64,000 nt of DNA from Acidimicrobiia bacterium UBA2766 (GTDB lineage Bacteria; Actinomycetota; Acidimicrobiia; UBA2766), in contig DEIU01000004.1 of assembly GCA_002352645.1 (NCBI GenBank), positions 234 to 64,233 on the forward strand, given 5' to 3'. The position numbers were made by a program, and so were the translations under genes. Below are positions 1 to 26,000 of the stretch, piece after piece; position 1 is the first letter of the stretch, and the number at the start of each line of letters is the position of its first letter. Below the pieces are notes generated by a model. It saw only the letters and a program-made list of their open reading frames with translations, had not been told where the DNA came from and did not search any database.

Positions 1-938
1 CGGATTTTCGCACGATAGCCGGCCAGGGGATCGCGCGTCCGAGTGCGGATCTGCTCGATACCGTGTACCTGTGTGAACAGCGCCAGGAATGGTACCGCGA
101 CTTTGCCTATGCCAATCGGGAAGAACGGGTGGGCTTTGTTGGCATGTGCACGACGTCGACTCCTGTGCTCGAAGCCGCAGCAGCGATGCGAGATAGTCTC
201 GATTTCGATTTTGCGCACCGCCCAAAGTTTTCAACTTGGGCTGAGGCGCTCAGCGATCTGACGGAACGGGCAGAAGCAGCCGGTTTGCTTGTGATGAGGA
301 GCGGGATAGTCGGGAGTGACTCGCATCGCAAGCTTGACCCGCAAGAGTTCCGGGGGTTCGCTTTGGTCGACGACCTTGCGCCTGTGGTCTTCATCAACAC
401 AACGGATACGAAAGCCGCACAGATTTTCACGCTTGCGCACGAGCTTGCACACCTCCGGCTTGGCCAGAGCGCACTGGACGACCTTCCTGGCGGGGGCTTT
501 TCCGAGAGTGATAGCGAAGACTGGTGCAATCAAGTCGCAGCCGAGTTCCTTGTCCCGCGCGAAGAACTCGAGCAAGAGCACGATTCTGCAAATGGTCCCA
601 CCACGAAGGAGCTTGACCGGCTTGCCTGCTTCTTTAAAGTAAGCACACTCGTTGTGCTCCGTCGGATCTACGAGCTTGGCCAGATTAGCTGGGACGAATA
701 CCAAGTTGTCTACCAGGAGGAGCAAACAAGAGTGCTCGACATTGCCGCGGCCCGGCGAAGTCGCAGTGGTGGAAACTTCTACAAGACAGTTCCGGTACGA
801 ACAAGTAAACGATTCGCGCGGGCGGTCATTACCAGCACGCTTGAAGGCAAAATCCTGTATCGGGATGCAGCACACCTACTTGGTTTCAAGAAACTCTCTG
901 TCCTCTACAAACTCGGTCGGGATCTCGGTATTGCATAA
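1..938 (+). CDS. ImmA/IrrE-family (DUF955/M78-like) zinc metallopeptidase, probably 5'-partial (frame open to window start)
   Basis: ORF 63..938 has an HEXXH motif (FTLAHELAHLRLGQ) typical of ImmA/IrrE peptidases. The reading frame has no stop back to nt 3, so the N-terminus likely lies upstream of the window. Confidence 0.55.
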   Translation, partial: DFRTIAGQGIARPSADLLDTVYLCEQRQEWYRDFAYANREERVGFVGMCTTSTPVLEAAAAMRDSLDFDFAHRPKFSTWAEALSDLTERAEAAGLLVMRSGIVGSDSHRKLDPQEFRGFALVDDLAPVVFINTTDTKAAQIFTLAHELAHLRLGQSALDDLPGGGFSESDSEDWCNQVAAEFLVPREELEQEHDSANGPTTKELDRLACFFKVSTLVVLRRIYELGQISWDEYQVVYQEEQTRVLDIAAARRSRSGGNFYKTVPVRTSKRFARAVITSTLEGKILYRDAAHLLGFKKLSVLYKLGRDLGIA

Positions 939-940
939 AA

Positions 941-1462
941 ATGGCCTATCTACTTGACACGAACGCCTTCATTGAAGCAAAAAACCGCTGGTATGGCTTT
1001 GATTTCTGCCCGGCATACTGGACCTGGCTCGAGTCCATGAATGCAGCAGGGACCGTTTTCAGTATCGAGAAGATCAAAAACGAGATCGAAGCCGTCGACG
1101 ACGAACTTCTTTTCTGGGCGCGAACCCGGGGAGAAGCCTTCTTCTTGCAACCAGACGAAAAAGTGATGGAAAGTCTGACCGAGGTGAACACCTGGGCTGC
1201 GGAGAGCACCCACTACGACCCAGCCGCCATCAGGACCTTCTTTGATATTGCAGATTCGTATCTCGTCGCCCATGCGCACGCGTACGGTCACATTGTCGTG
1301 ACACAAGAACAAAAAGCAGACTCCCGTAAGAAAATAAAAATCCCGAACGCGTGCCTTGAGCTGCAAGTCGAGTATCTCGACGTCTTCAGGATGCTCCGAA
1401 TGGAGGGAGCAAATTTTGTTCTCGGAAACAACCGGCGACCTCCGGAGCCACCTGAAAACTAG
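941..1462 (+). CDS. DUF4411-like PIN-type nuclease domain protein (putative toxin/effector partner of the ImmA/IrrE peptidase)
   Basis: 173 aa, starts MAYLLDTNAFIEAK (PIN-like 'LDTN' acidic start). It begins 3 nt after the upstream peptidase gene. The DUF955+DUF4411 pairing is a recurrent two-gene module. Confidence 0.5.
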   Translation: MAYLLDTNAFIEAKNRWYGFDFCPAYWTWLESMNAAGTVFSIEKIKNEIEAVDDELLFWARTRGEAFFLQPDEKVMESLTEVNTWAAESTHYDPAAIRTFFDIADSYLVAHAHAYGHIVVTQEQKADSRKKIKIPNACLELQVEYLDVFRMLRMEGANFVLGNNRRPPEPPEN

Positions 1463-2016
1463 CCAGTGTCAGTCATCTGTGTGCTGTCTTGTCTGTGATG
1501 TTTGGCCAAATGCGTAGAGGTGATCTTTTCTTCGTTGTCAGTTGTCGAGTGAAGTTGATGAGCCAGTCGTCTGGGTTGTTTGCTGTGATGATCACTTCGC
1601 ATGCAGCTGTTTCGGGTGCAGCAGTGGGTACAGCAGAAGGAAGGGGATGAGTGTTTGGGTGCATGCGTTCTCTTGCCTCTTGAGCGCAGGCCTGGGGTCG
1701 GAAAGATTTTGGCAAGGTCCCCGGAGTGGGGAGGCTTTCCTGGGGCTGGAAAGAGTTCGGGGAGGTGTGTGGTGTAGGAGTTCTTTCTGGCTCGGGGGGC
1801 TTGAAGGGGGCGAGGTTGAGGGGAGAGAGGGGCATATTTTTTTTGGGGTGGCTGTGTATTGTGTTTTTTTCTTGATGGGCTGAATCGATTTTTTTGGAGC
1901 ATTGCGGGTTTTCTGTTTATGCCCTTCTTGCAGGTTTTTCATGTTGTGCGATTGATGTTTTGTTGTCTTTTTTTGAGAAAAGAGGTGTATGGTGCCTCCT
2001 TTTCGTGGCCAATTTT

Positions 2017-2052
2017 GGGAGAAGAAGAGAAGAAGAGAAGAAGAGAGAGAGG
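2017..2052. repeat. (GAA/GAG)n purine microsatellite within a 770-bp non-coding spacer
   Basis: gagaagaagagaagaagagaagaagagagagag read directly; flanked by G-runs at about 1690-1850. Confidence 0.5.
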
Positions 2053-2230
2053 TATCGCTGGGGTATGTGCAGAAGACAGAACCGATAGGGATATGTGCAG
2101 TTCCCTCATTTCCTGTGCCCTTCAGCCTAGGTACTACACATGCAGTCGATTATTGCATGCTGTGAAGAATTGCACAGTTTGGTATCAGCCTCCTTTCTGT
2201 GGGAGTTCGGACCGAGGGACGTGAAGAGAG

Positions 2231-4459
2231 ATGCCACCTTCGACATCTACCCGCAATAGCATCGCAGATCTTGTCGATCGCCGGCGCGCTTTTGCTGCTG
2301 CTGCTGAGCAGCGACGCGAGAGAATCGAAAAACTGAATTTGTCGCTGCAACAGCTGGCTCGTTTGCGCGAGAGGTTGTTGCGTACCTGCGACCAGGACGA
2401 TTTTGTTCATGAAGAAATGCGTATCTTTTACGACAAGATTCAGTCACTTGACGCGGACACTCTGTGTAGGCGCTTGCGGTCAGAGATGCAGGATTATGAC
2501 GGGGCACGTTCCCGTTTTAGCCGTACTACTTTGAATATCGCGGTGATCGGTCGTGCTCGTCAGGGGAAGAGCCGACTGCTGCAGGCGATTACCGGTTTGT
2601 CTTCCCGCGAACTTCCTGACGGAATGGGAGAAAACTGCACTGGTGTGAAGAGCACTATCTATAACAGTCAGACGACTGACCCTCACGGTGAGGTGTTCTT
2701 CCACGATGATGCTTCCTTTATAGGGGATGCAATCGGACCTTATTACGAGATGCTTGCTCTTGGGCCTCCTCCTTCTTCGATTGCTTCGTTTGCGAGCCAC
2801 CGGATTCCGGCGGCTTCCATGGAGGAAATGACCGTTCGTCAGACTGCGATGTATGACCGTTTGCAGATGATGCAGGAGCATCTTGACGAGTACCGTGATC
2901 TGTTGGGTGCAGAAAAGCGTCGTATTCCGCTAAGTCAATTGCGTGAATATGTGGCTCAGGACACTCCGGAAGGACGCCGTGATTACCGTAAGTATTTTGC
3001 GGTACGTCATGTGCATGCATATTGTGCTTTTCCTAATATGGAAGACGCTCCTATCGCGGTGATCGACCTTCCAGGCTTGGGTGATACGGGTTATGGTGAC
3101 GAAGAGCGTTTGCTGAATACGCTGAAGACCGAAGTTGATTTTGCGTTCTTCGTTCGTATGCCGCGCAGTACCGGAGTCGGCGACAGTTGGGCCGACATTG
3201 ATCTTGACTTGTACGACACTGCGAACAGCTCGCTAGAGGCCCTTCGTCTTGCGGACTGGTCGTTTTTGGTTCTGAACAAGGTACAGACCAAGAACAGCAA
3301 TAATGCTGATACTTGCGACATGCTCCGGTCTTCTCTTCCCCGTCAGTTTTTCTCCAGTGCCCAGTGTATTGTGGCGGACTGTGCAGAGGAATCAGAGGTC
3401 GAAGGCAAGGTACTTACCCCCGCTTTGGAATACCTTGAGACGCATCTTGAGGGTCTCGACCGAGAGTACGATGCGTACCATTCGAGAGAGCTTGACAAGC
3501 TTGTGACTGAGGTTGAGGGGACTCTTTCTTTTGCGGGAAGAGCTGTGACGCTGGGGCGAAGCGCCGATGCAGAAGCCCACGAAGTGTACAAAGATCTCTT
3601 CGATGACTTCTGGCACAAGATTTCAACAGGGCTTGAGCGTCTTGTGCGGGAGTTGAAAGAGACTCGTGACAGCGAAGACGAGCACTTCCGTCAGCATGTG
3701 GTTGCTCTCATTGAACACTGTGCAGAGACGGTGCCGCTCCCGACAGAAGACGAGATTTCCTCACGGCGAGACCATCGGGGTTCCTACGACACTGCCTATA
3801 GCGATTTCAGGAACGAGATGCGTTCCCAATTGTCACGCGAGTTCCTTCGCCTTGACAATGTGCTGCATCAGAGCATGGAAGAACTAAAGCAGCGGGTTGT
3901 CGAAATCTTGTGCTCAAGTGTGCGATTGGACCGTTTGGTTTCGATTGATGGTGGAGCGTCTCCCTGGTTGCATGGGTTCGGGAATGAACTGCCTCCGGAC
4001 TATCACCGCTTGAAAGAGGGATTCAGCGTCCTTGCCGGTTTTGAGCTCTCCTATCGTGGATTCATTCACCACCGGATCCGTCGAGAGCTTGATGTGCTGA
4101 CTCCTGACAGTGCAACGTCCTTTTCGCTGCCCACTCCCGCGGATTCTGCAATGGTGCGGGAACGTCTTGACGCGGCCTACCGGGAAGCCCTGCACGAGGC
4201 CGAACCTGCTCTTCTTGCTCTTGCCGCAGAGCCTAGCCAAGCGGCTTTCGGTATTACGGAGGAATTCGTGGACCGTATCTTGCGTGCGAAGCGAGTGGAA
4301 CGAGAGTGGGATGTGTATTTGAATAGGCACCGTCTGGTGCTTTGGCCCGAGGTGTTTGACCGTATCGGGGAATTGATGGAATTGAAGCAGGAGTGGGTGG
4401 AGGCTGTAACCCATGCGAGACATGCGACGGATGATCTCTCCCGCCTGCTTCCCCGGTGA
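2231..4459 (+). CDS. Dynamin-like large GTPase (bacterial dynamin-like protein; LeoA/IniA-like)
   Basis: 742 aa with an N-terminal coiled coil, P-loop G1 (GRARQGKSRLL), dynamin-type G3 (AVIDLPGLGD), an NK-type G4 (LVLNKVQTK) and a long helical C-terminal stalk. Confidence 0.7.
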   Translation: MPPSTSTRNSIADLVDRRRAFAAAAEQRRERIEKLNLSLQQLARLRERLLRTCDQDDFVHEEMRIFYDKIQSLDADTLCRRLRSEMQDYDGARSRFSRTTLNIAVIGRARQGKSRLLQAITGLSSRELPDGMGENCTGVKSTIYNSQTTDPHGEVFFHDDASFIGDAIGPYYEMLALGPPPSSIASFASHRIPAASMEEMTVRQTAMYDRLQMMQEHLDEYRDLLGAEKRRIPLSQLREYVAQDTPEGRRDYRKYFAVRHVHAYCAFPNMEDAPIAVIDLPGLGDTGYGDEERLLNTLKTEVDFAFFVRMPRSTGVGDSWADIDLDLYDTANSSLEALRLADWSFLVLNKVQTKNSNNADTCDMLRSSLPRQFFSSAQCIVADCAEESEVEGKVLTPALEYLETHLEGLDREYDAYHSRELDKLVTEVEGTLSFAGRAVTLGRSADAEAHEVYKDLFDDFWHKISTGLERLVRELKETRDSEDEHFRQHVVALIEHCAETVPLPTEDEISSRRDHRGSYDTAYSDFRNEMRSQLSREFLRLDNVLHQSMEELKQRVVEILCSSVRLDRLVSIDGGASPWLHGFGNELPPDYHRLKEGFSVLAGFELSYRGFIHHRIRRELDVLTPDSATSFSLPTPADSAMVRERLDAAYREALHEAEPALLALAAEPSQAAFGITEEFVDRILRAKRVEREWDVYLNRHRLVLWPEVFDRIGELMELKQEWVEAVTHARHATDDLSRLLPR

Positions 4460-4508
4460 TCCTTTTTGCGATTGCTGAAGATGCACCGATCTTTATATAG
4501 GGAGCGAA

Positions 4509-5600
4509 ATGGTCGGGAGACCCAAGCTCGATAGAGTCGATGTGATGATGCTTGGCCCTTCCGGTGTGGGAAAAACGAGCCTCCTCGCCGCGATGTACGA
4601 GCAATTTGCTGAGAATGTTCACGCTACAAATCTTACGTTGGTGCCGGACAAGTCCAGTCATGACCTATTGGAGAAGCGTCTTCGCGAACTGCGAAGCATT
4701 CCTGATGCGTTTGTCATGAAGGGATGGATGCCCGGCACAAAACAGGGACAGTCTTTTCATTTCCGTATTGGGAAAAATGGCAACGAGGACGATGGCACCT
4801 TTGTTGAGGAAGACGCGGACGAGAAGTCAAAAGACTCGAAACTCGCTGTGTGCTTCCATGATTTTCCTGGTGGGGATATGTCGAGTGATGATCCCGCGCA
4901 TCGCCGGCGAGTCTTGAACCTCTTACGAGAAGCGCGAGCGGTATTTGTTGCCATTGATACGCCTGCGCTTCTTGAACGTGGAGGCAAATGGCACGACAAA
5001 GTGAACCAGCCGGCGCGTGTGACTCGACTTTTCCAAGAAGCCTACGGTGGTATGGACTCAGAGACATTAGACCAACGTCTTGTGGTTTTTTGTCCATTGC
5101 GTTGCGAACGTTATGCGGAGGTTTCGCCGACAACTGGAGTCCGATACAAAAATCAGCGGGAGCGTCGTTCTCTTGGGGATGCGGTAGAAGTCGGGTATGC
5201 AAGCCTCATGCGCTTTTTTCAGGAAAGTGAACTTTTTCGGGAGAAGGTCGCTCTTGTTGTGACTCCTGTACAGACGATTGGCGGTGTGCGCCTTACTCGT
5301 GTCGAAGAAAATAAAGACGAAAACGCTTCTACCTTCTATTTTCGTCATGTAGGGGTTGGGCCTGGGTATGGGCCGGTTGATACCGATCAGCCGCTCCGTT
5401 ACTTGCTGCGTTTTATTTTGCAGTCCTATGTTTCTCGCCAGGAGACAGAGTGGGGGCCGTTCAAGCGGATGCGGCGCTGGTTTGGTGTAGATGAGGAGCT
5501 GGTAGCAGCGGCGCAACAGTTTGCAAATGGCTGTAAGCTCTCTGAAGATTTCCGCATTTTGCAGGGAGACGAGTTGCTTGGCATGGCGCTCGAGTCCTGA
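4509..5600 (+). CDS. Short paralogous dynamin-like GTPase (LeoB/LeoC/IniC-like partner)
   Basis: 363 aa with Walker A (GPSGVGKTSLL) and G3 (CFHDFPGGD), followed by a (V/A)FVAI pattern paralleling the upstream protein's DLPGLGD...FAFFV. It starts 50 bp after the upstream stop on the same strand. Confidence 0.65.
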   Translation: MVGRPKLDRVDVMMLGPSGVGKTSLLAAMYEQFAENVHATNLTLVPDKSSHDLLEKRLRELRSIPDAFVMKGWMPGTKQGQSFHFRIGKNGNEDDGTFVEEDADEKSKDSKLAVCFHDFPGGDMSSDDPAHRRRVLNLLREARAVFVAIDTPALLERGGKWHDKVNQPARVTRLFQEAYGGMDSETLDQRLVVFCPLRCERYAEVSPTTGVRYKNQRERRSLGDAVEVGYASLMRFFQESELFREKVALVVTPVQTIGGVRLTRVEENKDENASTFYFRHVGVGPGYGPVDTDQPLRYLLRFILQSYVSRQETEWGPFKRMRRWFGVDEELVAAAQQFANGCKLSEDFRILQGDELLGMALES

Positions 5601-5624
5601 ACGAACGGCGGGGGAGAGACCTTT

Positions 5625-6299
5625 GTGAAGGCGTTCGTCCAAACGCGCGGTTTTGCGCAGCATGAGGAATATCGATGGTATCCGAGTGAACCGAAAAATA
5701 TCGCATTCTCTGACATTCTTCAGCTTGTCGACTTAGGCGCGCCTTCTGTTGTCTTATGGCGTCACGAGGGAAATCTGCATTGCATGGTTTCAGGCCTCGA
5801 TGCTCGACGAGTGGATTTTCGCGACCGTCCTATCGAAAACTCTCTTGTGGTGATGGGCGGGCCGCGCGAAGGTCTTGACATTCAGTCGATCGCGTCAGAG
5901 GCCCTGCGTTTTCCTGAGACTCTCGCTTGTCTTGTGAGAGATAATATGGACAAAGAAGACGTCAACGGGAATGGGGACCCTCTGGTGCGTCCTCTGCGTC
6001 AAGTGGTGCTCCGTAAAGAGCTTGTTCTCAATGCAAACGATGAAATGGGTGTGCGTAAGGTCGCCAAAGACTCAGAAGAGAAGAGGGTGCATTTGGCGAG
6101 TTTGATTGAGACCACCCGTCTTCCAACGGTAGATGGCCCTCTGCTCCTTTGTACCGATCATAAGCCGGAAAAAGTTCTCGTGGATGCTGGTGTATGGCGG
6201 GGCTTGTCGACGCTGATAGAAGCAAGTGGGTGGAAAATCGTGGGGGAGAAGCCTCGCCGGAAAACCCGGGGTATTGGTCTGCTACGCCGGCGATTCTGA
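5625..6299 (+). CDS. Hypothetical protein, third gene of the GTPase operon
   Basis: 224-aa ORF with a GTG start 25 bp after the upstream stop. No recognisable motif; coding assignment rests on operon context. Confidence 0.45.
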   Translation: MKAFVQTRGFAQHEEYRWYPSEPKNIAFSDILQLVDLGAPSVVLWRHEGNLHCMVSGLDARRVDFRDRPIENSLVVMGGPREGLDIQSIASEALRFPETLACLVRDNMDKEDVNGNGDPLVRPLRQVVLRKELVLNANDEMGVRKVAKDSEEKRVHLASLIETTRLPTVDGPLLLCTDHKPEKVLVDAGVWRGLSTLIEASGWKIVGEKPRRKTRGIGLLRRRF

Positions 6300-6345
6300 G
6301 TTTCCCAACTTTTTGTTCTCTGTGGAGGGCGCAGCTTTCCCACAT

Positions 6346-9866: not shown

Positions 9867-11198
9867 TTATGGGCGGGTGAAGGGAAGCGTGACGCTCTCT
9901 GTTTTTGTTTTTGTGTGACCGGGACCACTGACGCGCACTTTTGCAGTGTGTGTGCCAGGATCAATGCCTTTGATGGTGTGAGATCCTTTTCCGGCGTCAA
10001 ATGGGGTCTCTTCCTCATTCAAGCTGACAATGCTTCTCTCCGCATTTGATGCATCCCACTTGATTGTCACGTCATAGCTGAGCGGCCCGGAAGAGGTACT
10101 TGGGGTAAAAGAGACCTTGAATTCTTCAAAAACAGGAATGGGAGCTGTCGGATCTTGCGGCGTGGCAGCCTCTTCTTCGAAGAGGGGAGCATTCGCTGCC
10201 GAAGGGAGCGCGCTGTTTTGTGCTGGATTTTGGGTACTTGTTCCATTCGGGGAGTCGAGGGAGCTGTCGTCCCCATTCCCGGTGAGAAACACGAGGAGAA
10301 GCGTGATGATGAGGATAACCGCAGCGATGGATCCTGCACGCATAGTATTTGTGGCACCTGTCCACCAGTTGTTAAAACGGGTGAAAATCCGCCGAAAATT
10401 TCCGAAGAAAGTTGTGTTTTCGTCTTCTTGTGTGGGAATACCGTGATACTCGAGTTCGTTGTAGACGGTTCTCCGGGTCATGCGAGTGGGAAGATCGGCT
10501 TGCATGCTGGGGAGGTTATGCAGAGGATCGGGGCCAGTGCCCAGTTTGGATTTACAGATCTCGCAATTGTCCGCGTGGCGAAGAATTGGTGTGACAAGAG
10601 TCTCGTCTGGGCGATGTTCCGCAGTGAGCGTCATAAGCCTTGGACACTGGTTGCGAGAATTCGTCCAGATGTGAATAGCATCCGCGAGCTCCCAGGCTGC
10701 TGTTTTTGCCCGCAAGTAAATGCGTCCAGTTTGTTCTGGAGAGGTCTCGAGAACTTGGCCTGCTTGGTCCGGGGTGAGCCCGTAGCGAAGAGCTAAGACC
10801 AGTACGGAACGCTCGACTTCCCCAAGGCTGGCGATGGAAAAATAGCCTTCGAGATTTACCGGTTTAGGCTTTTCGTCTGGGTTGAGAGCTTGCTTGCGTA
10901 GTTCCCTAAACAGCGTTATTAGGCTGGTATCTGGTTTTTTCCCCATAGGGAGCCATCGTCGGGTAGAACGCCATAAGGTGAGGTAGGTCGTGATTAAGGG
11001 ACCGACAGCATCTTGGTCCCTTGGAATGTAGACCCGCGCGTAATCGAACGCCAATGGCAGGGAACGATGTACGAACTCTCCGAATGAGAGGCCTTCGAAT
11101 TCTTGGGGATTAGCTCGTTCTGGAGTAATTGTAGAAGCAGGAAGCATGGAAGGCTCCTGGGCGCAGTGACTCGCGTGATATAACCGCACGCCACCCAT
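9867..11198 (-). CDS. Sigma-70 (ECF-like region 2 + region 4) fused to zinc-finger anti-sigma-like domain, one TM helix and extracytoplasmic Ser/Thr/Pro-rich domain
   Basis: Region 4 HTH (LGEVERSVLVLALRYGLTPDQAGQVLETSPEQTGRIYLRAK), then H-x3-C-x2-C (HADNCEIC), TM segment (AGSIAAVILIITLLLVFL) and a low-complexity extracellular tail. Confidence 0.55.
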   Translation of the reverse strand: MGGVRLYHASHCAQEPSMLPASTITPERANPQEFEGLSFGEFVHRSLPLAFDYARVYIPRDQDAVGPLITTYLTLWRSTRRWLPMGKKPDTSLITLFRELRKQALNPDEKPKPVNLEGYFSIASLGEVERSVLVLALRYGLTPDQAGQVLETSPEQTGRIYLRAKTAAWELADAIHIWTNSRNQCPRLMTLTAEHRPDETLVTPILRHADNCEICKSKLGTGPDPLHNLPSMQADLPTRMTRRTVYNELEYHGIPTQEDENTTFFGNFRRIFTRFNNWWTGATNTMRAGSIAAVILIITLLLVFLTGNGDDSSLDSPNGTSTQNPAQNSALPSAANAPLFEEEAATPQDPTAPIPVFEEFKVSFTPSTSSGPLSYDVTIKWDASNAERSIVSLNEEETPFDAGKGSHTIKGIDPGTHTAKVRVSGPGHTKTKTESVTLPFTRP

Positions 11199-11742
11199 GT
11201 GAGGGGTTTTTTTATGTTCCTAGGGGTTTTCTTGCAACCTCTGAAGTTTTCCTTGGAAAAGTCAGAGGTAATCTTTGGACCTGAGAGTAGTAAGAGCGGG
11301 GTCAACGTTGTCTGACGGTAATCCGCTTTCTTCGGAATGAAGCATTATCGCAGATCTTTTGTGACGGTAGCGGAAGACTCTACTTCTTTTCCAAAGAGGT
11401 TCGTCTGTAGAGCTTTTTTGCGAGATCTGGGTGTTCTTGTGGAAGGATAGTCTTTTGATGATCTCTTTATGCTATCTATAATTGTTTGAGGTTTGCGGGG
11501 GATATTGCCATTGTTGGTGGTCTTTCTATAGAGCACTCGCTTTTCGAGTCGGTCTTACACGAGGGCCCAGGTGGGATTTGGTCTATGTAGGGTTTTTCTT
11601 TTTTCGCTCTGATTTCCCGAAGTGAGCTGCTGAGAAGTGGACTGTTTCTTTTTGCCGGAGCAGTTTGCCTGGATATCGCATCCGGTTTTTTCTGTGTTTT
11701 CTGCTATGCTTCTCCCGCGTTTATTGGTGTTGTACTGGTGTT

Positions 11743-11814
11743 GGCGGAGTAGCTCAGTGGCAGAGCAAACGGCTCATAATCGTTGTGTCGGCGGTTCGAA
11801 CCCGCCCTCCGCCA
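11743..11814 (+). tRNA. tRNA-Met (anticodon CAT; G1-C72 pair so elongator type, or possibly tRNA-Ile2/LAU)
   Basis: GGCGGAGTAGCTCAGTGGCAGAGCAAACGGCTCATAATCGTTGTGTCGGCGGTTCGAACCCGCCCTCCGCCA gives a cloverleaf with anticodon loop CT-CAT-AA. Confidence 0.8.
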
Positions 11815-12211
11815 CTCTTTTTATATGACTTCTTGGTGTATTTTTTCTGCGTTTTTTGTAGGAGTTTACTTTCCCGATAAAGCAGCTCTTAATCTGCGTT
11901 CATGCTACAAGGGGTGTGACGCAGGGAGCGTCGGAATGTTTTTCTGAAAATGCTGATGGCGCTTTTTTGGGCAGATTTTCTCGAGTAAACACTGTGCTGT
12001 GTTGTGTGTGTATCGCGTGGGGGACCGGTCTATTTCTCGCTTTTGCAGATCTGTTATGCGCTCTGTCTGTAAATTCCGGTTTGTCGGTGTTCTTATGCTT
12101 TCTCCGGAGAGGTTTTCCTAGACTCTCTAGGTGCGACTACCTCTTGGAGTATTCTGAAGTGGAGATCCGGGGGGGAAATCAGGGTATGGGCTGAGAGTTT
12201 TCAACGAAGTC

Positions 12212-13018
12212 TTGCGGAAAAGTTGGATTTCTCTGATGAAGGCGTCGCCGGGTTCTTTTTACCCTGGTCGTTGCTGGTCTATCCATAGTCCGCTCCATAG
12301 TCCGCTCGGTCATGGTTTTGCTGGGGGCATCCTTGGTGTCTGCGTTCTCTGGATTGTGGAAGAGCGACTTTGTGCGGAAGCGTCGAGCTGTTTTGCCGTT
12401 TTTCTGGTAACCGATGCCAGTGGTTGCCGTGTCGAATTTCTGAATACAACGGAGCCGTCCTTGAAGATAGATCCCTCTCTCGTCGAAAGGGCTGGGAAAG
12501 GCGATCCTGATGCGTTTGAGGAGATTGTTCGCCTCACCCATAGCGATATGTTTGGACTAGCGTACCGTCTTCTTGGTAATGAGGATGACGCTCGGGATGT
12601 CCTGCAAGACGCTTATTTAAGAGTGTATCGCTCTTTGAAAAAGTTCCGAGGGGACGCTCAGTTTTCAACTTGGATGTATCGGATCGTAGCGAACACGGCC
12701 TACACATATATGCGGAAACGGCAAAAACATCGTGCGGAACGTCTCGATGGTATTGAAGAGCCAGAATCTGAGTCGGTGCGGCCCGAGGACGCGTCAACGA
12801 ACACTGATTTGCGGGAACGTTTGAAGCAGTGTCTCCTGGCTCTTCCCCCTGATCAGCGGGTAGTGGTGGTGATGAAAGACATTTACGATCTGCCGCATGA
12901 GGATATTGCGAAAGAGCTCGGCATTTCTGTGACGGCCGCCAAAGTGCGGTTACACCGAGCGCGAAAGCGTTTGCGTGCAAGTCTGGAGTCGGAAGGAGCG
13001 ATAGATGCTGTTTCGTAG
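12212..13018 (+). CDS. ECF-type RNA polymerase sigma factor (sigma-70 regions 2 and 4)
   Basis: Region 2 (FEEIVRLTHSDMFGLAYRLLGNEDDARDVLQDAYLRVYRSLKKF...STWMYRIVAN) and region 4 (VVVMKDIYDLPHEDIAKELGISVTAAKVRLHRARKRL). The ORF maximum is given; the true start may be an internal TTG near 12461. Confidence 0.75.
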   Translation: MRKSWISLMKASPGSFYPGRCWSIHSPLHSPLGHGFAGGILGVCVLWIVEERLCAEASSCFAVFLVTDASGCRVEFLNTTEPSLKIDPSLVERAGKGDPDAFEEIVRLTHSDMFGLAYRLLGNEDDARDVLQDAYLRVYRSLKKFRGDAQFSTWMYRIVANTAYTYMRKRQKHRAERLDGIEEPESESVRPEDASTNTDLRERLKQCLLALPPDQRVVVVMKDIYDLPHEDIAKELGISVTAAKVRLHRARKRLRASLESEGAIDAVS

Positions 13019-13460
13019 GAGGGAACCCTCCGAAGCGAAACCAGATGCCGGGCAGATGCAGGCGGAAAAAGCAGATATCGTCGCAGCTTCTTTCGATTTA
13101 CCTGAGGAGCCCCGTCGAATTAAAAAGCATGATATCGACAGATATCTGGCTTTGCAGGATGATGAAGCGACCTATCAGCAGATGATCCGTATGCTCGGAA
13201 GTCTACGAAACGAGTCTCCGAGCGCATCGGCTGGAGACCTTGTGGACGAGGTGCTGGCCTATGTCTTTGTCGAGGGAGACCAGCAAATGAAGCGTCGTCT
13301 CCTGATATTCCTGAAAGCAGGGGGATTGGCTGCCTTGGTGGGGGGGGTAGTGGTTGTTGTGACAGTGCTCGGGCGGAACCCTCGTGTGGGGTCGCGTGTC
13401 GCAGAGTCGACGCGTCGTGGTCGAGAGATCTTTCTTTCTCGGGCAGCCGGGGGCAGGTGA
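13005..13460 (+). CDS. Putative membrane anti-sigma factor (overlaps sigma gene stop)
   Basis: 151-aa ORF overlapping the sigma-factor stop by 14 nt, with a single TM helix (LAALVGGVVVVVTVL). No zinc motif; call rests on context. Confidence 0.4.
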   Translation: MLFRRREPSEAKPDAGQMQAEKADIVAASFDLPEEPRRIKKHDIDRYLALQDDEATYQQMIRMLGSLRNESPSASAGDLVDEVLAYVFVEGDQQMKRRLLIFLKAGGLAALVGGVVVVVTVLGRNPRVGSRVAESTRRGREIFLSRAAGGR

Positions 13461-13964: not shown

Positions 13965-14038
13965 AGGGGCGTAGCTCAATCTGGTAGAGCACTGGTCTCC
14001 AAAACCAGCGGTTGAGGGTTCAAATCCTTCCGCCCCTG
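13965..14038 (+). tRNA. tRNA-Trp (anticodon CCA)
   Basis: AGGGGCGTAGCTCAATCTGGTAGAGCACTGGTCTCCAAAACCAGCGGTTGAGGGTTCAAATCCTTCCGCCCCTG is near-identical in architecture to E. coli tRNA-Trp and sits at the conserved tRNA-Trp-secE-nusG position. Confidence 0.85.
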
Positions 14039-14174
14039 CAAGATGATGTCTTCCGTTTTCCTATGCCACACAGGTATTGGGAACGGTTGGTGTTGCGAGC
14101 AGGGTGCTCTAGAAGTGAGAGCAGCAGGCCACGGGGTGCTCTTCGGGTTTGCAGGAGAGTGACAAGGATCGTTT

Positions 14175-14474
14175 GTGAACCGACAGCTACGGCGGATGCA
14201 GGCTAAACAAGAGGCCGTTGAACAGCGGAAGCAGCAGTCTGCTCAGGTGCGTCAACAGGCCCAAAAAAAAGCCGTGCAGGAACAAAAACGTGTAGGAACA
14301 CGTCAGTTCACACGTGAAGTCATAGGCGAGATGCGAAAAGTGCTCTGGCCAACACAAGAACAAGTCAGAAATTCGACTTTGGTCGTGCTTGTCACTGTGT
14401 TTCTTCTTACCGGCTATATCTATATTGCTGACACATTGTTTAACAGTCTTATTTTCGAGGTGGTGTTCAGGTGA
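14175..14474 (+). CDS. secE: Preprotein translocase subunit SecE (with basic/Gln-rich N-terminal extension)
   Basis: C-terminal TM helix ([22 protein letters not shown]) and the conserved position before nusG. Confidence 0.8.
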
Positions 14475-15148
14475 GTGGCACCGTCGAGGGCGGATTGCAA
14501 GAGGATCTCTCATATTCTGAGGGAGACATCAGTGAGACTATCGAAGAAGATGTCACACGTGTTTTGCCTGTCGATACTGATGAGGACGACGAAGACGAAC
14601 TAGCGGAAACGAGTCCGTACGATAAGCCGGGTCAGTGGTATGTTGTTCATACTTATGCTGGTCAGGAGAATCAGGCAAAATCAAACCTCGAGAGCCGTAT
14701 CGTCTCCATGAACCAGGAGGACGATATTTACGAAGCGATCATTCCGATGGAGGATGTGATCGAATTCAAAGCGGGCAAGAAGCAGGTTGTCCCCAAAAAG
14801 ATTTTTCCTGGCTATCTCTTGGTTCGTATGTATGTGACAGACGAGGGATGGAATTGTGTTCGGCACACTCCTGGGATCACAGGTTTTGTGAGTTCTGGCA
14901 CTCGGCCTGTCCCGCTCACCCGTAAAGAGGTCGAGCGTATTCTCCAGGTGAAACCAGACAAGAAGGTCAAGCCGAAGCTCGACTGGGATGTGGGCGAGAA
15001 TGTCCGCGTCATGGGAGGGCCCTTCGCTGATTTCAATGGCACGATTTCCGAAATCAATGTCGATCAGTCCAAGCTCAAAGTGCTTGTCAATATTTTTGGG
15101 CGAGAGACTCCGGTCGAACTTGGTTTCGACCAAGTGGAAAAACTCTGA
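14471..15148 (+). CDS. nusG: Transcription termination/antitermination factor NusG (acidic N-terminal extension)
   Basis: NGN ([15 protein letters not shown]) and KOW ([21 protein letters not shown]) motifs; GTG start overlaps the secE stop. Confidence 0.85.
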
Positions 15149-15821: not shown

Positions 15822-16276
15822 CTGTCTTGACCTGCCGGCATCCATAGTGCTGTCTGCTGCCTGGTTGGTGTGTAGGGTCAGTCTGTGATCATGCCGGGCC
15901 GTGGCGAGTTTTCCTCCATATTCTCTCCGCGTTCTGGAACAGGAAAAATACGGGATTCTCCGCCAACACTGGCCGGCGAAAATCCTCAGTTTTCCTGGTT
16001 CTTCCTTGTCGAGATGTCTCTGGCAGAAGAGATGGAGACTCTTCCGCTTCGTCATTTTTCGGCGAAGCTATCGGGGGAGCTGCTGAGGGAAGGTTGCTTC
16101 CCGGCTGTTTTTCTCGGTGAAGGCCTGCGAAAACTTCTGAAGGTCTGTGTACAAGATCTGAAAAGGCGGGGACTAGGGGAGAGCATCGCTTCGGAAGCGA
16201 AGCAAAAATGGGGGAATGGATTGGGAGATACCTCCACCGGAGGTATTGTTTGCACCAATACTGAGAGGAAATAGGC

Positions 16277-19664: not shown

Positions 19665-22600
19665 TTGGCCGTTACGGCGCGCCCCGGTATCCGTGACCGT
19701 GTCTCCTTCGCCACTATCGAAGAAGGCTTACCGCTACCAGATCTCCTCGCTGTTCAAAAGAATTCTTTTGAATGGTTTATGCACGAAGGCATTGCCGAGG
19801 CCCTTCATGAGATCTCTCCCATCGAAGATTATTCGGGAAACCTTATCCTTGAGTTCGTTGACCACGAGTTTGAGGGTCCGAAATATTCTATCGAAGAATG
19901 CCGCGAACGGGATATGCAGTATGGCTGCCCTTTGTTCGTGACTGCCCGGTTTGGGAACCGTGAAACTGGTGAGATCAAAGAACAGCGAGTGTTCATGGGG
20001 GAATTCCCCATGATGACTCCTGCTGGAACTTTCATCATCAATGGGACAGAAAAGGTTGTTGTCAGTCAATTAGTGCGTAGTCCCGGCATTTATTTTGACG
20101 TTTCGACTGATAAAACTTCTGAAAAACTTCTGCATGGTGCCAAGGTCATTCCTGCCCGTGGTGCTTGGCTGGAGTTTGATATTGACAAGCGTGGCACGGT
20201 CGGTGTCCGGATTGACCGGAAGCGACGTCAGATCGTGACAATTTTATTGCGAGCGCTTGATTTTGGTGAAGTTGACCTTTCCACTAATGAGAGTATTCTC
20301 GAGTATTTTGGGGGGAATGAAGGTATCAGCGCGAGCTTGGAGCGCGATCATACTACGACGCGTGAAGAAGCTCTTATTGATATTTACCGGAAGCTTCGGC
20401 CTGGTGAACCGCCTTCAGTTGAAGCATCTCGTGGCCTGCTTGACCAGCTTTTCTTTTCGTCAAAACGCTACGATCTCTCTCGTGTGGGCCGCTACAAGAT
20501 CAACCAGAAGTTTGCTCTTTCCCCTGAGGCACACAAAGTTCATATTCTGACTCCCGACGACATTCTCCGAACAGTAAAGTACCTTGTGGACTTGTCCGAG
20601 GGGAAAAACGGTTTCTCGATTGACGACATCGATCATTTTGGAAATCGGCGAGTGCGGGCAGTGGGTGAACTCATTGCCAATCAGGTTCGTATTGGGCTTA
20701 CCCGTATGGAACGGGTTGTGCGTGAACGGATGACTACACAGGAAGTGGAGGCTATTACCCCCACGACCTTGATCAATATCCGTCCTTTGACTGCCGCAAT
20801 CAAAGAGTTCTTTGGTACTTCGCAGCTGTGTCAGCTCTATGACCAGACAAATTCCTTGACAGGCCTCACGCATAAACGACGCCTTTCGGCCCTTGGTCCT
20901 GGCGGGTTGTCGCGTGAACGAGCTGGTTTCGATGTGCGAGACGTGCATCCTAGTCACTACGGGCGTATGTGTCCGATTGAGACGCCAGAAGGTCCGAACA
21001 TTGGGCTGATCGGCTCTCTTGCAACCTACGCGCGAATCAATGATTACGGTTTTGTCCAGACTCCCTACCGTAGGGTTTCTGAAGGGGTCGTCCTCGACGA
21101 AATTTGTTATCTCGACGCGCACGAAGAAGATCGGTACACTATCGCACAAGCAAATGCTCCTATCGATCATGATACGGGGCATTTCAAGAATGACCGAGTG
21201 CTTTGCCGGCAGAAGGGCGAACCCGCTTATATTTCTCCGTGGCAAGTCGACTACATGGATGTTTCCCCGCGGCAGATTGTGTCTGTTTCGGCCTCTTGCA
21301 TTCCCTTCTTGGAGCACGACGACGCAAACCGGGCTCTCATGGGGTCCAATATGCAACGTCAGGCAGTGCCTCTTCTCCAAGTAGAAGCGCCCTATATCGG
21401 GACAGGAATGGAAGCGAGAGCGGCGCTCGACTCTGGGGATCTCCTGCGGGCCGAAGAAGATGGGGTTGTTACCGAAGTAGCCGGCGACCGTGTCGTGATT
21501 GAAACCTCGGGGACTGGGGAACGTCACACTTACCGTCTCTCCAAATTCCGTCGCTCGAACCAGTCAACCTGCATCAGCCAGCGTCCAATTGTGGAAGCAG
21601 GCATGCGGATTACCAAGGGAGACGTCCTCACGGACGCTGCGAACACCTCCCAAGGTGAGCTGGCTTTGGGGAAGAATCTACTTGTGGGCTTCATGACTTT
21701 TGAGGGCCACACGTTCGAAGACGCCATTGTGGTCTCCGATCGCCTCGTGCGTGATGACGTGTTGACGTCAGTGCACATCGAGGAGTACGAAATCGAAGCG
21801 CGTGACACCAAACTGGGTGAAGAAGACATCACGCGTGACATCCCCAATGTGTCCGAAGAGGTTCTTCGAGACCTTGATGAACGCGGAATTATTCGTATTG
21901 GGGCTGAAATTGGCCCAGGCGACTATCTCGTTGGCAAGGTAACTCCAAAAGGAGAGACTGAACTCACGCCAGAAGAGCGTTTGCTGCGGGCCATATTTGG
22001 TGAAAAAGCACGCGAAGTGCGGGATACTTCTCTCAAGGTTCCGCATGGAGAGTGGGGAAAGGTCATTGACGTCCGAGTGTACAGCCGGGAAGACAATGCT
22101 GACCTGAACCCTGGCGTGAATAGGCTTGTGCGTGTGTATGTGGCACAGAAGCGCAAGATCTCCGTTGGTGACAAGCTTGCGGGACGACATGGGAACAAGG
22201 GCGTTATTGCCACAGTACTACCTGTGAATGACATGCCTTTCCTTGCCGATGGGACTCCCCTGGACATTCTTTTGTCCCCATTGGGTGTGCCGACTCGAAT
22301 GAACGTGGGGCAGGTTCTGGAAACCCTTTTGGGTTGGGCCGCCTACAACGGATGGGAAGCAGGTCCTTGCGCTTCCGACCCGGGAAACGGCAAGATCGCT
22401 TCTGTTCGCGAACCGGCATCCTATATTTCGACGCCTATTTTTGATGGCGCGCATTGGTCGGATAATGAGGCCCAGGACGCCGGCATGAATCCGGACACGG
22501 GAGTACCGCACCAGTCTATTCAGGAGATGCTGCGGACATCTCGCTCTGGGCATGGTCTTCGACTCATTGGTGAAGACGGGAAAGCTCAGCTCTATGACGG

Positions 22601-23093
22601 GCGCACGGGTGAGCCTTACGATCGTCCAATTGCTATTGGTTTCATGTACATCTTGAAACTTTTGCACCTGGTTGATGACAAGATTCACGCCCGTTCGACC
22701 GGGCCTTACTCCATGATTACCCAACAGCCTTTGGGTGGAAAAGCCCAGTTTGGGGGGCAACGCTTCGGAGAGATGGAAGTGTGGGCGCTCGAGGCCTATG
22801 GGGCTGCGTATTGCCTGCAGGAACTGCTCACTATTAAGTCAGACGACGTGTTTGGCCGTGTCAAGGTCTACGAAGCCGTTGTCAAAGGCGAAAATGTTCC
22901 TGATCCTGGTTTGCCGGAATCGTTCAAGGTGCTGGTGAAAGAAATGCAGTCGCTGTGTCTCAATGTTGAAGTGCTCTCGCAGGAAGGCACGGAGATCGAG
23001 ATGCACAACTTCGAGGAAGACGCTTTCCGTACTGCCGAAGAACTGGGCATCGACATCTCTCGTCCAGAGCGAAGCGAAGTCGAGGAGGCATGA
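19665..23093 (+). CDS. rpoB: DNA-directed RNA polymerase subunit beta
   Basis: 1142 aa with conserved blocks throughout. TTG start is forced by an in-frame TGA at 19656 and is preceded by AAAGGAG. Confidence 0.9.
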
Positions 23094-26000
23094 GCACGGT
23101 GGCAGCGATCCAGCAGTCTCGGAATACTGATCTTCGTTTTGATCAAGTGCGTATTGGTCTTGCCACACCCGATCAGATTCGGGCGTGGTCAAACGGTGAG
23201 GTGAAGAAGCCCGAGACAATTAACTACCGCACCCTGAAGCCTGAGATGGAAGGCTTGTTTTGCCAGCGTATTTTTGGTCCAGTGAAAGACTGGGAATGCG
23301 CCTGTGGCAAGTACAAAAGGGTTCGCTTCAAGGGGATCATCTGCGAGCGCTGCGGTGTTGAGGTCACGCGTAAAAGTGTACGCCGGGAACGTATGGGTCA
23401 TATCGAGCTAGCGGCTCCTGTGACTCACATTTGGTATCTCAAGGGTGTTCCAAGCCGTCTTGGCTATCTTCTCGACGTTTCTCCAAAGGATCTTGAACGC
23501 GTTATCTACTTTGCTTCCTACATTGTGACGCATGTGGACCAAGAGAACCGGACAGCAGCTCTGCCGGAACTCGAAGTGCGTATGCGTAATGAATCTGACG
23601 AAGTCTGGAAACTCTACGAAGAGCGTGAGCAAAATCGTATGCTCCGCGTTGAAGAGGAACTTGCCTCGTTGGAAGAGGCAGGAGAATCTGCCGAGGAGAT
23701 TGAGTCTCGCCGTAAGCAGTTCGACAAAGAGATGCGAAAAGATTCGCAGCGGGATCGCGAACGTGTTGAAGAAGAAACGCAGCATCTGAGCGAAGTTTTC
23801 ACGACCTTTAAGGGCCTGAAAGAGCGGCAGCTTATAGAGAACGAATTCGTTTGGCGGGATTTGCGTGAGCGCTACGAAGAGTATTTTTCTGGTGGCATGG
23901 GTGCCGAGGCGATCCGGGAATTGCTTGAAACCATTGACCTAGATCAAACAGAAAGTGCGTTGCGCGAAGAAATTATCGTTAGTAAAGGACAAAAACGCGC
24001 ACGCGCTACCAAGCGTCTCAAAGTAGTGGCGGCTTTCAATCAGGGCGAAAACCGTCCTATCGGCATGATCCTGGAGTGTGTACCTGTTATCCCTCCGGAC
24101 CTTCGTCCAATGGTGCAGCTTGATGGTGGACGTTTTGCGACGTCCGACCTGAACGACCTGTACCGGAGAGTGATTAACCGGAATAACCGCCTGAAACGAC
24201 TGCTCGATTTGGGTGCTCCGGAGATCATTGTTAATAATGAAAAGCGCATGTTGCAGGAGGCCGTAGACGCTTTGCTCGATAATGGGCGTCGTGGTCGACC
24301 TGTCACGGGACCAGGGAACCGTCCTCTAAAGTCTATTTCGGACATGTTGAAAGGCAAGCAAGGCCGTTTTCGTCAAAACTTGCTTGGAAAGCGTGTCGAC
24401 TATTCTGGTCGATCGGTGATCGTCTGTGGTCCTCGTTTGCGTTTGCATCAGTGCGGGCTTCCAAAGCAGATGGCGTTGGAACTCTTCAAGCCTTTCGTTA
24501 TGAAACGTTTGGTGCAACAGGACTTGGCAGCCAACATCAAGTCTGCCAAACGCATGGTGGAGCGTCCGCGCCCTCAAGTCTGGGACATCCTCGAAGAGGT
24601 GATCAGCGAGCATCCCGTACTTTTGAACCGGGCACCTACTCTGCACCGTTTGGGTATCCAAGCTTTCGAGCCAGTGCTTGTGGAAGGGAAGGCCATCCAG
24701 ATTCACCCGTTGGTGTGCGCGGCGTTTAACGCGGACTTCGACGGGGACCAAATGGCTGTGCACGTCCCCTTGTCAATTGAGGCACAGGCTGAGGCACGAA
24801 TTCTCATGCTCTCGGCAAATAACCTGTTGTCTCCTGCTCATGGCCGCCCTCTTGTGACTCCGACGCAAGACATGGTGATCGGGGCGTTCTATCTCACAGC
24901 AGATCCTCCGAATGAACCTCCAGCAGAGATTCCAGTCTTTACTTCTCCAGTCCAAGTGCGTTTTGCCTACGACTCTTTTCTTGGGGACGGCAAGCGTGTT
25001 CTGAACTTGCATGACCGAGTCAGAGTGCGTGGTCTGAAGCCATCTCTACAAGATGAAATAATAGAGACCACAGTCGGACGCGTTATTTTCAACTCGACTT
25101 TTCCGGACTCGTATGGCTACGTCAACGAAGTCATTAAGAAAAAGGACTTGGGCCGTTTGGTCATAGAGTTGTACGAGCAGTGTACGCACACAGAAATTGT
25201 GAGGACGCTCGACAACCTGAAAGAGCTCGGGTTCCATTTCGCCACCGTGTCGGGTCTGACGTTTTCGATTGATGACGTGAAAGTGCCTGATGAAAAGTCC
25301 GATATTCTTGATGTCTACGAGAAGCGGGCCGAACGAGAGGAAAAAAACTACCGGGCAGGTGCGATCACGGAGCAGGAGCGTCGTCAGCGTTTGATTGAAA
25401 TCTGGCAAGAGGCTTCTGACAAAGTGAAAGATGCAATGGTCTCGAGGATGGGGAAAGATCCGTTTAACCCTATCCAGATGATGACCGACTCTGGTGCTCG
25501 TGGCCAGGTTATCCAGGTACGTCAGATTGGTGCGATGAGGGGTTTGGTAGCAAACCCAAAGGGCGAGATTATGCCTCGTCCTATCAAATCCAATTACCGT
25601 GAAGGACTCTCGGTTCTCGAGTACTTTATTTCCACGCACGGTGCACGTAAAGGACTCGCTGACACCGCGCTACGAACGGCAGACTCTGGTTATTTGACCC
25701 GTCGTCTTGTCGACGTTGCCCAAGAAGTCATCATTCGCGATGATGATTGTGGCACGACCCGAGGCATTGCGGTCCAGGTCAGCGAAGAAAAGCGGTCTTT
25801 GGAGAGCCAGCTGAAGGGCCGCTATCTCATGGAAGACCTTGTGGATGGGACCACAGGGGAAATCCTTCTCCACACAGGTGACCCAATCAAACGTACTCTC
25901 CTTCTTTCTATCGCGAAGGCAAAAATCGAATCTCTAAAAGTGCGTTCGGTTCTCTACTGCCAGTTGCGAGATGGGGTGTGCTCGAAGTGCTACGGCTTTG

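Follow-up and report, generated by a model that had tools for sequence, protein, structure and literature searches.

We found that a minus-strand gene in a 64,000-nucleotide (nt) stretch of the Acidimicrobiia bacterium UBA2766 genome (contig DEIU01000004.1, hereafter the window) encodes a membrane protein that descends from an actinobacterial family of fused extracytoplasmic function (ECF) sigma/anti-sigma proteins. Profile-profile comparison, a predicted structure and synteny all pointed to this origin. The protein, of 426 amino acids (aa), is a fast-evolving variant of this known fused class in Acidimicrobiia, carries a PKD-like sensor domain and is invisible to curated hidden Markov models (HMMs), its sigma part having drifted beyond detection by standard domain models. 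We put at roughly 50% the probability that it is a self-contained transmembrane (TM) signaling protein, whose sigma-like module would be held in cis by a zinc-associated anti-sigma (ZAS) domain, be freed by proteolysis and then act as an ECF sigma.

Residues are numbered here on the 426-aa protein, of which an identical public copy is referred to as P0001. From the N to the C terminus, the chain comprises a sigma2-like helical domain, a sigma4-like helix-turn-helix, a ZAS anti-sigma domain, a TM helix, a linker and a PKD/immunoglobulin (Ig)-like ectodomain (Table 1). The ZAS domain begins 3 residues past the last sigma4-like helix, bears the zinc motif C168-x22-H191-x3-C195-x2-C198 within its helices and continues into a conserved helix (222-234) followed by a G-I-P motif; C168, C195 and C198 are the only cysteines of the protein. 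About 35 residues then separate this domain from the TM helix, in which the Kyte-Doolittle profile peaks at 2.68 and whose flanks carry net charges of +2 (N side) and −3 (C side). We therefore predict a single-pass type II membrane protein with an N-in/C-out orientation, a topology that would be compatible with regulated intramembrane proteolysis. Beyond the linker, of which 16% is Pro, the ectodomain was matched by Foldseek to a PKD domain and to Ig-like domains of glycosidases and chitinase, and the HMMER matches over this region were PKD-repeat proteins.

The original prediction, made from the DNA letters alone, had named a sigma region 2-like segment, a region 4 helix-turn-helix, an H-x3-C-x2-C motif and a TM helix in this reading frame, and all four were recovered. 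The helix-turn-helix lies at residues 102 to 165 and is significant by itself against a family profile, the motif corresponds to H191/C195/C198 with C168 upstream, and the TM helix is one strong hydrophobic segment; for the sigma2-like segment (18-90), weak matches in one shared register and an AlphaFold model agree. That the TM segment could be a signal peptide, which would have made the whole protein secreted, was ruled out by its position at 271-289, far from the N terminus. The predicted Ser/Thr/Pro-rich tail of about 150 aa was right in part: there is an extracytoplasmic tail, 137 aa long, but only 48 aa of it is of low complexity and the rest is the folded PKD-like domain.

Close relatives of the protein were hard to find, since its host belongs to a sparsely sampled lineage of Acidimicrobiia (Actinomycetota). 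A word-indexed search of 5.8 billion proteins returned the protein itself and one homologue, P0002, with 46% identity and the same architecture; rerunning it with the family alignment added few sequences, and scanning a collection of species-representative genomes with the protein and with a two-sequence alignment yielded no relatives. In an exhaustive HMMER search of 1.84 billion cluster representatives with the two-sequence profile, 88 proteins were matched at E≤1e-3. Most of them are about 500 aa long and were matched over query positions of about 100 to 240, that is, sigma4 plus ZAS. This search linked some 75 fused proteins to the target; a single low-complexity match, P0020, was discarded as spurious. 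Pfam recognized Sigma70_r2 in 65 of 77 aligned sequences and Sigma70_r4_2 in 51, and four relatives (L013p, P0007, P0009 and P0011) reached 65 to 75 bits against the NCBIfam sigma model TIGR02937. Nearly all relatives possess H-x3-C-x2-C, a TM helix 50 to 200 residues later and then a Pro/Ser/Thr-rich tail of 120 to 250 aa, which ends in PASTA domains in two cases and in CBM_2 in one. C168, H191, C195 and C198 proved invariant in 71 relatives aligned without the target pair.

When the pair formed by the target and P0002 was compared with these 71 relatives by hhalign, the two profiles aligned colinearly over residues 18 to 245 with a probability of 99.8% (E=2.7e-30). The sigma4-like segment (E=6e-12) and the ZAS domain (E=7.6e-12) were each significant alone, and the sigma2-like segment fell in register with regions 2.1 to 2.4 of the relatives, as it did in a BLASTP comparison with the canonical ECF sigma encoded next to the target (E=0.046). 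Residues retained in this register are F22, D35, A37, A47, Y55 (where the family has F), W59, R81, R84 and A87-L88-N89, and the sigma4 structural positions L108, L116, L118, R121, L133 and W161 are likewise kept. The profile of the relatives matched solved structures of the ECF sigmas AlgU, SigW, RpoE, CnrH and SigE (E=4e-29 to 1e-16, and no weaker than 1e-22 for the first three).

Given an alignment of no more than two sequences, AlphaFold did not model the N-terminal 127 residues (predicted local distance difference test [pLDDT] below 50). With the 77-sequence family alignment, AlphaFold2 gave a model of mean pLDDT 83.8, in which residues 11 to 240 were mostly above 85. Helices were placed at 22-40, 44-63 and 76-87 in sigma2, at 110-121, 126-133 and 137-164 in sigma4 and at 169-174, 182-194, 196-199 and 222-234 in the anti-sigma domain, whose helices would dock onto the sigma-like module. 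Leaving aside the Ig-like matches of the ectodomain, the best Foldseek matches in the PDB were PhyR sigma-like domains and the sigmas CnrH, SigW and SigG1; the TM-score normalized to the target was 0.67 for CnrH in the CnrH-CnrY complex and 0.65 for SigW in the SigW-RsiW complex.

Synteny supplied further support. The same chromosomal position codes for a 436-aa protein (P0012) in GCA_020850945.1, for a 511-aa protein resembling P0006 and P0010 in GCA_019695375.1 and, on a marine Acidimicrobiia contig, for a 435-aa fused protein whose gene directly follows an ECF sigma gene and a gene for a 172-aa protein on the same strand, with secE on its other side. The marine protein has the canonical motifs DVAQDTF and WLYSIARH, a Pfam Sigma70_r2 match and a TIGR02937 score of 69.6 bits, and its BLASTP alignment with the target (E=8e-6) is colinear between region 2.1 and the ZAS motif. 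As this protein is canonical, colinear and located at the same position, the target is positionally orthologous to a genuine fused ECF sigma. Positional orthologues are about 24% identical where RpoB is 81% identical (9867-11147 versus L010:2444-3754), which is unusually fast divergence for a regulatory protein. The RpoB protein of the window is 81% identical to those of Acidimicrobiia bacterium metagenome-assembled genomes, the next identities being 78% and 69%.

Divergence is uneven along the chain. Between the target and P0002, identity is 56% in the sigma2-like domain, 58% in the sigma4-like domain and 66% in the ZAS domain but only 24% in the linker, the least conserved part with a 14-residue indel, and 32% in the ectodomain. 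Since the cytoplasmic module is far better conserved than the linker and ectodomain, we consider it to be under selection, whatever its role. The target is an unusually fast-evolving and degenerate member of its family, in which several hallmark residues of sigma2 have been lost.

In the mechanism that we favor, binding in cis of the sigma-like module by the ZAS domain, combined with the tether to the membrane, would keep the module inactive. Whether the trigger came through the PKD-like ectodomain or through the thiol/zinc chemistry of the ZAS site, it would lead to regulated proteolysis or a conformational change, and the cytoplasmic module thus set free would redirect RNA polymerase as an ECF sigma. 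Zinc binding, inhibition in cis, proteolysis and sigma activity are each proposed for the target, proteolytic release by analogy with IutY and with the predictions for ECF48, ECF52 and ECF53. Sigma activity is the weakest step of this scheme because several sigma2 hallmarks have been lost.

A number of results weigh against this scheme. A Pfam scan of the target at E≤10 found no Sigma70_r2 (PF04542), Sigma70_r4 (PF08281/PF04545) or zf-HC2 (PF13490), and TIGR02937 matched only region 4 (residues 105-148) with E=0.026 and 14.2 bits, versus a cut-off of 42.9. Taken alone, the sigma2-like segment was not significant in hhalign (E=0.003, probability about 10%), nor did it gain much with six subclade sequences (E=0.0013, probability 18%). 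The target-pair profile matched no solved sigma, so the homology of the target to ECF sigmas is transitive, running through its relatives. True sigmas dominated the alignment that guided the AlphaFold2 model, and the sigma2-sigma4 linker is short, at about 15 to 20 residues. The target has substitutions at six positions for which conservation among 67 canonical relatives is 88 to 96% (W29S, D31P, Q52I, D53T, W to T78 and N to K85). At the position of R146 in the sigma4 recognition helix, Arg is conserved in 94% of the canonical relatives, but the closest homologue, P0002, and the positional orthologues P0006, P0010 and P0012 have A, D, D and L, respectively, which speaks for a relaxed constraint on DNA binding within the subclade. 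No ECF-type promoter was found upstream of the target. With the determinants of sigma2 and sigma4 partly degenerate in the subclade, it is uncertain whether the released product would be a functional sigma.

The original prediction of a fusion thus stood in that sigma-like, ZAS, TM and outer parts occur in one chain, but the sigma homology is transitive and comes without a Pfam match. The check proposed with it, an HMMER search with the Pfam models Sigma70_r2, Sigma70_r4_2 and zf-HC2, gave no match, which is the outcome that it had itself named as contrary to its claim. Its further suggestion, release of the sigma domain by proteolysis, corresponds to the model put forward in the literature, for which IutY is the sole demonstrated case. 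The zinc-finger model PF13490 is insensitive for this family, as it matched just 1 of the 77 members. Weak Pfam matches to ANTAR and DUF959 in the target (E=0.1-0.2) were set aside as chance.

Two readings would deny the fusion or its sigma ancestry altogether. An assembly error or frameshift that joined separate sigma and anti-sigma genes deserves practically no credence, had nothing in its favor and is already refuted by the independent assemblies and the architecture shared with relatives: the identical 426-aa protein occurs on at least 10 contigs from assemblies of four sources, namely NCBI (GCA_002389445.1), ENA, JGI and Logan, P0002 and about 75 relatives are built in the same way, and the indels between the target and P0002 preserve the reading frame. 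The public copies that we looked up carry neither a name nor a Pfam assignment. It is also very unlikely, and already disfavored, that the protein is an ordinary membrane anti-sigma whose N-terminal 165 residues are unrelated to sigma and resemble one by chance. The missing Pfam sigma match and the sigma2-like region that is not significant alone are what one would expect in that case; yet the sigma4-like segment, by itself, matches relatives that are bona fide sigmas with E=6e-12, colinearity extends over the whole stretch between region 2.1 and ZAS, the syntenic orthologue carries a canonical sigma2, and the predicted fold matches ECF sigma chains.

A more serious, albeit less probable, alternative to the released sigma is that the module has lost RNA polymerase and promoter binding and persists for protein interaction, as a membrane-tethered sigma mimic with a ZAS domain. 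Either the ZAS domain would then sequester another ECF sigma, for example, the neighboring one, or the mimic would titrate the anti-sigma of that sigma in a PhyR-like manner. Sigma mimicry is an established mechanism, a point in favor of this alternative (PMC4814048, PMC4551977). The subclade of P0001, P0002, P0006, P0010 and P0012 has lost canonical residues of region 2.2, region 2.3/2.4 and the sigma4 recognition helix, whereas its ZAS ligands and the hydrophobic residues of the core are invariant. No above-threshold sigma HMM match was obtained for the target, P0006, P0010 or P0012: P0010 and P0012 had no Pfam sigma2 match, and only Sigma70_r4 (E=0.086) was seen in P0006 and only Sigma70_r4_2 (E=0.007) in P0012, both below the gathering score; P0023 is intermediate in its sigma degeneracy. 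Set against these losses, the target and P0002 both retain two region 2.4 Arg, and the target also keeps R146 and K148 in the recognition helix, which we take to be the equivalents of R176 and R178 of Escherichia coli sigmaE. PhyR sigma-like domains are the best fold matches, and the NCBIfam PhyR-family model matched the target weakly (E=0.13, 12 bits versus a cut-off of 240), but such fold matches may merely reflect a compact sigma2/sigma4 arrangement, and we treat the PhyR resemblance as a lead, not as membership. In each of four Acidimicrobiia loci, the gene has those of a canonical ECF sigma and of a small TM protein as neighbors, and its positional orthologues have diverged to about 24% identity despite 81% in RpoB; on the other side, the neighboring sigma has its own overlapping putative anti-sigma gene, ECF linkage is absent for the more distant relatives P0011 and P0023, and a tRNA gene and about 1 kb lie between the target and the ECF unit in this window. 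That the fused protein of the subclade lost sigma activity and became a membrane-anchored pseudo-sigma, held by its own zinc anti-sigma domain and switching partners on the neighboring ECF sigma/anti-sigma pair by secE-nusG, is a tentative proposal; if true, Actinomycetota would have arrived independently at a transmembrane counterpart of the PhyR-NepR-EcfG logic, gated by proteolysis or redox.

We regard as improbable a further alternative, in which the same fusion would work without proteolysis as a redox or electrophile switch, the thiol/zinc site of ZAS being oxidized, zinc lost and the anti-sigma loosened in cis while the protein stays membrane bound or acts from the membrane. The sole three cysteines are ZAS ligands and are invariant, and ZAS proteins such as RsrA sense redox via these residues; many ZAS domains (RsiW, RslA and ChrR), however, use zinc structurally and not as a redox switch. 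A membrane-tethered sigma could hardly join RNA polymerase at the nucleoid uncleaved, and the conserved TM helix and ectodomain argue for a signal from outside. Release of a sigma-like module by proteolysis remains the reading that we prefer, at the even odds given above.

The coordinates of the gene, its encoded domains and its neighbors are compiled in Table 1. The minus-strand open reading frame (ORF) at 9867-11198, which the original prediction had correctly located, comprises 443 codons, but its start had to be corrected. The true start is likely Met18, at window position 11147, as AGGAG lies 6 nt upstream, public gene calls place the start there, and P0002, the only close homologue, opens with the identical MLPAST. 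No ribosome-binding site precedes the first two in-frame start codons of the 443-aa ORF, and AGGAG is the sole conserved block in an upstream alignment of the target and P0002 genes. Another ORF of 426 aa in the window (51444-52724) was considered as a paralogue and rejected, being by eye an unrelated, PucR/CdaR-like regulator.

Table 1. Positions in the window of the fused gene, its encoded domains and the adjacent genes
Feature	Coordinates	Strand	Remarks
Whole gene	9867..11147	-	426 aa + stop; Met18 onward of the 443-aa ORF 9867-11198
Ribosome-binding site AGGAG	11154..11158	-	6 nt 5' of the ATG at 11147
Sigma2-like domain, degenerate, residues 18-90	10878..11096	-	helices 22-40, 44-63, 76-87; pLDDT 86-95
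Sigma4-like helix-turn-helix, residues 102-165	10653..10844	-	TIGR02937 E=0.026; hhalign alone E=6e-12
ZAS-type anti-sigma domain, residues 166-236	10440..10652	-	hhalign alone E=7.6e-12; pLDDT 89-98
Putative zinc ligands	C168 10644-10646, H191 10575-10577, C195 10563-10565, C198 10554-10556	-	
Single TM helix, residues 271-289	10281..10337	-	predicted N-in/C-out
Extracytoplasmic low-complexity linker, Pro/Ala/Ser/Asn-rich, residues 290-337 (48 aa)	10137..10280	-	pLDDT <50
Extracytoplasmic PKD/Ig-like seven-strand beta-sandwich, residues 338-426 (89 aa)	9870..10136	-	pLDDT ~90-97
tRNA-Met (CAT)	11743..11815	+	between the target and the ECF sigma operon
Neighboring canonical ECF sigma, divergent from the target	12236..13018	+	Sigma70_r2 1e-16, r4_2 1.5e-19; TIGR02937 115 bits
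151-aa single-TM protein, presumed cognate anti-sigma	13005..13460	+	ORF; 14-nt overlap with the end of the ECF sigma gene

The genes that flank the target are folD and tRNA-Met. The 151-aa protein encoded after the divergent ECF sigma matched no Pfam or NCBIfam family and is presumably the cognate anti-sigma of that neighbor; it resembles the SfLAP family weakly (E=0.028), and an SfLAP-family membrane protein is encoded downstream of the P0002 gene (L005:1697-2371). Further on are tRNA-Trp, secE, nusG, rplK, rplA, rplJ, rplL, rpoB (19665-23093) and rpoC (23090-26983), with tRNA-Trp (13965-14039) preceding secE, as in many bacteria. The neighboring ECF sigma has been called at 260 to 268 aa (12212-13018) with sigma2 starting near residue 100, and its orthologues measure 183 to 227 aa; either its start was called too early or it bears a Cys-rich hydrophobic N-terminal extension.

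Four related Acidimicrobiia loci adjoining secE-nusG combine a fused sigma/ZAS/TM gene with a canonical ECF sigma gene and a gene for a small membrane protein of 96 to 172 aa (window 9867-13460, L010:2444-5114, L011:1850-4763 and L013:1161-4165). The fused gene is divergent in three of them; in L013 it shares the operon of the other two and comes after a receiver-domain gene. In L010 and L011, about 280 to 420 nt with no called gene take the place of the tRNA-Met stretch. Among the more distant relatives with enough flanking sequence, P0011 and P0023 have no ECF neighbor, and the P0007 contig, at 2.3 kb, is too short for a judgment. In L012:1-8170, from a related genome whose RpoB is 78% identical, a giant PKD/cadherin-repeat protein of >3800 aa is encoded upstream of rplJ and replaces the secE-nusG/ECF locus.

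Scans for sigma-70-like promoters and terminators stayed at background level, and searches for shared bipartite ECF motifs (GGAAC-N16-18-CGT and de novo k-mer pairs) gave nothing above noise upstream of the fused genes in five loci or of the neighboring ECF genes in four. Elsewhere in the window, positions 63-6300 upstream of the target hold a possible defense or toxin-antitoxin-like cluster, with an M78 peptidase (PADLOC RmrA/CapP-like matches, E of about 1e-13), a DUF4411 protein, a 742-aa protein weakly matching LeoBC, a 363-aa protein faintly matching DO-GTPase2 and a 224-aa protein of no assigned kind. An ORF of 127 to 129 aa with no family match, placed between rplK and rplA in public assemblies (15885-16274), may be spurious and represent the rplA leader. 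In NusG (14471-15148), the NGN domain is preceded by about 55 residues that form an acidic N-terminal extension. GC skew is positive in every 2-kb bin over positions 1-64000 (cumulative 4.78), as would fit a window that belongs to a single replichore and has its ribosomal and RNA polymerase operons on the leading strand.

Fusion of a sigma factor and its anti-sigma has been described before, in ECF48, ECF52, ECF53 and IutY (PMC8999054, PMC5826349, PMC7826278). The original prediction overstated its case in calling such proteins uncommon, given that ECF48, ECF52 and ECF53 are whole groups defined by the fusion, to which IutY in ECF243 is to be added (PMC8999054, PMC5826349). Among sigma factors, fusions of this sort are the counterpart of "one-component systems," and very few of them have been studied; experimental work is confined to SCO4117 and IutY. 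The present case illustrates that thresholds of curated HMMs can overlook fused proteins of this kind.

A close parallel in layout is ECF52, exemplified by SCO4117 of Streptomyces coelicolor, which likewise joins an ECF sigma, a ZAS zinc finger, a TM region, a Pro-rich outer stretch and a C-terminal outer domain (PMC5826349). The group is found only in Actinobacteria, and proteolytic release has been proposed for it (PMC5826349); the host of the target belongs to Acidimicrobiia. A truncated SCO4117 consisting of the sigma-factor domain only still modulates development and activates the expression of its own gene (PMC5826349). SCO4117, however, has a recognizable TIGR02937 sigma and a pfam13490 zinc finger, whereas the target fails both models, and it ends in a carbohydrate-binding module, whereas the shorter (426-aa) protein from Acidimicrobiia ends in a PKD/Ig-like domain. 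Since our Pfam scan of the target found no carbohydrate-binding module, it cannot be filed as ECF52. ECF48 and ECF53 combine a C-terminal ZAS-like zinc finger with one or two TM helices and are predicted to have a built-in anti-sigma that is released proteolytically (PMC8999054). The relatives reported here, at about 500 aa with one TM helix, fit that description; neither group has a characterized member, and the degenerate sigma2 of the target sets it apart.

IutY of Pseudomonas putida (ECF243) also carries its sigma and membrane anti-sigma parts on a single polypeptide, and it is the only one for which release by regulated intramembrane proteolysis, through Prc and RseP, has been demonstrated (PMC8999054). 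It differs in being of the FecI/FecR type without a ZAS motif, proteobacterial and coupled to a TonB-dependent receptor, and sequence kinship with the target beyond the ECF fold is not expected. With the stand-alone ZAS anti-sigmas of the pairs RsiW/SigW, RsrA/SigR, RslA/SigL and ChrR/RpoE, the target shares H-x3-C-x2-C, an upstream fourth ligand and a helical domain of the type that binds sigma2 and sigma4. RsiW is, in addition, single-pass and degraded by regulated intramembrane proteolysis, and the sigma-like part of our model superposes on the SigW chain of the SigW-RsiW complex. Those anti-sigmas are separate polypeptides encoded beside their sigma, whereas here both parts are on the same chain. 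PhyR, finally, resembles the target in that its sigma2/sigma4-like domain is too degenerate to score as a sigma any longer, but it is a soluble alphaproteobacterial protein with a receiver domain and without ZAS or TM parts (PMC4814048, PMC4551977), whereas the Pfam scan of the target at E≤10 found no receiver domain.

If its sigma-like module still works, the target simply adds to a known class a divergent member, one that comes from an uncultured lineage. A single chromosomal position offers a natural series, with a canonical fused ECF sigma at one end and strongly degenerate versions at the other, from which one could learn how a sigma domain decays or takes on a new purpose while the anti-sigma domain fused to it stays intact.

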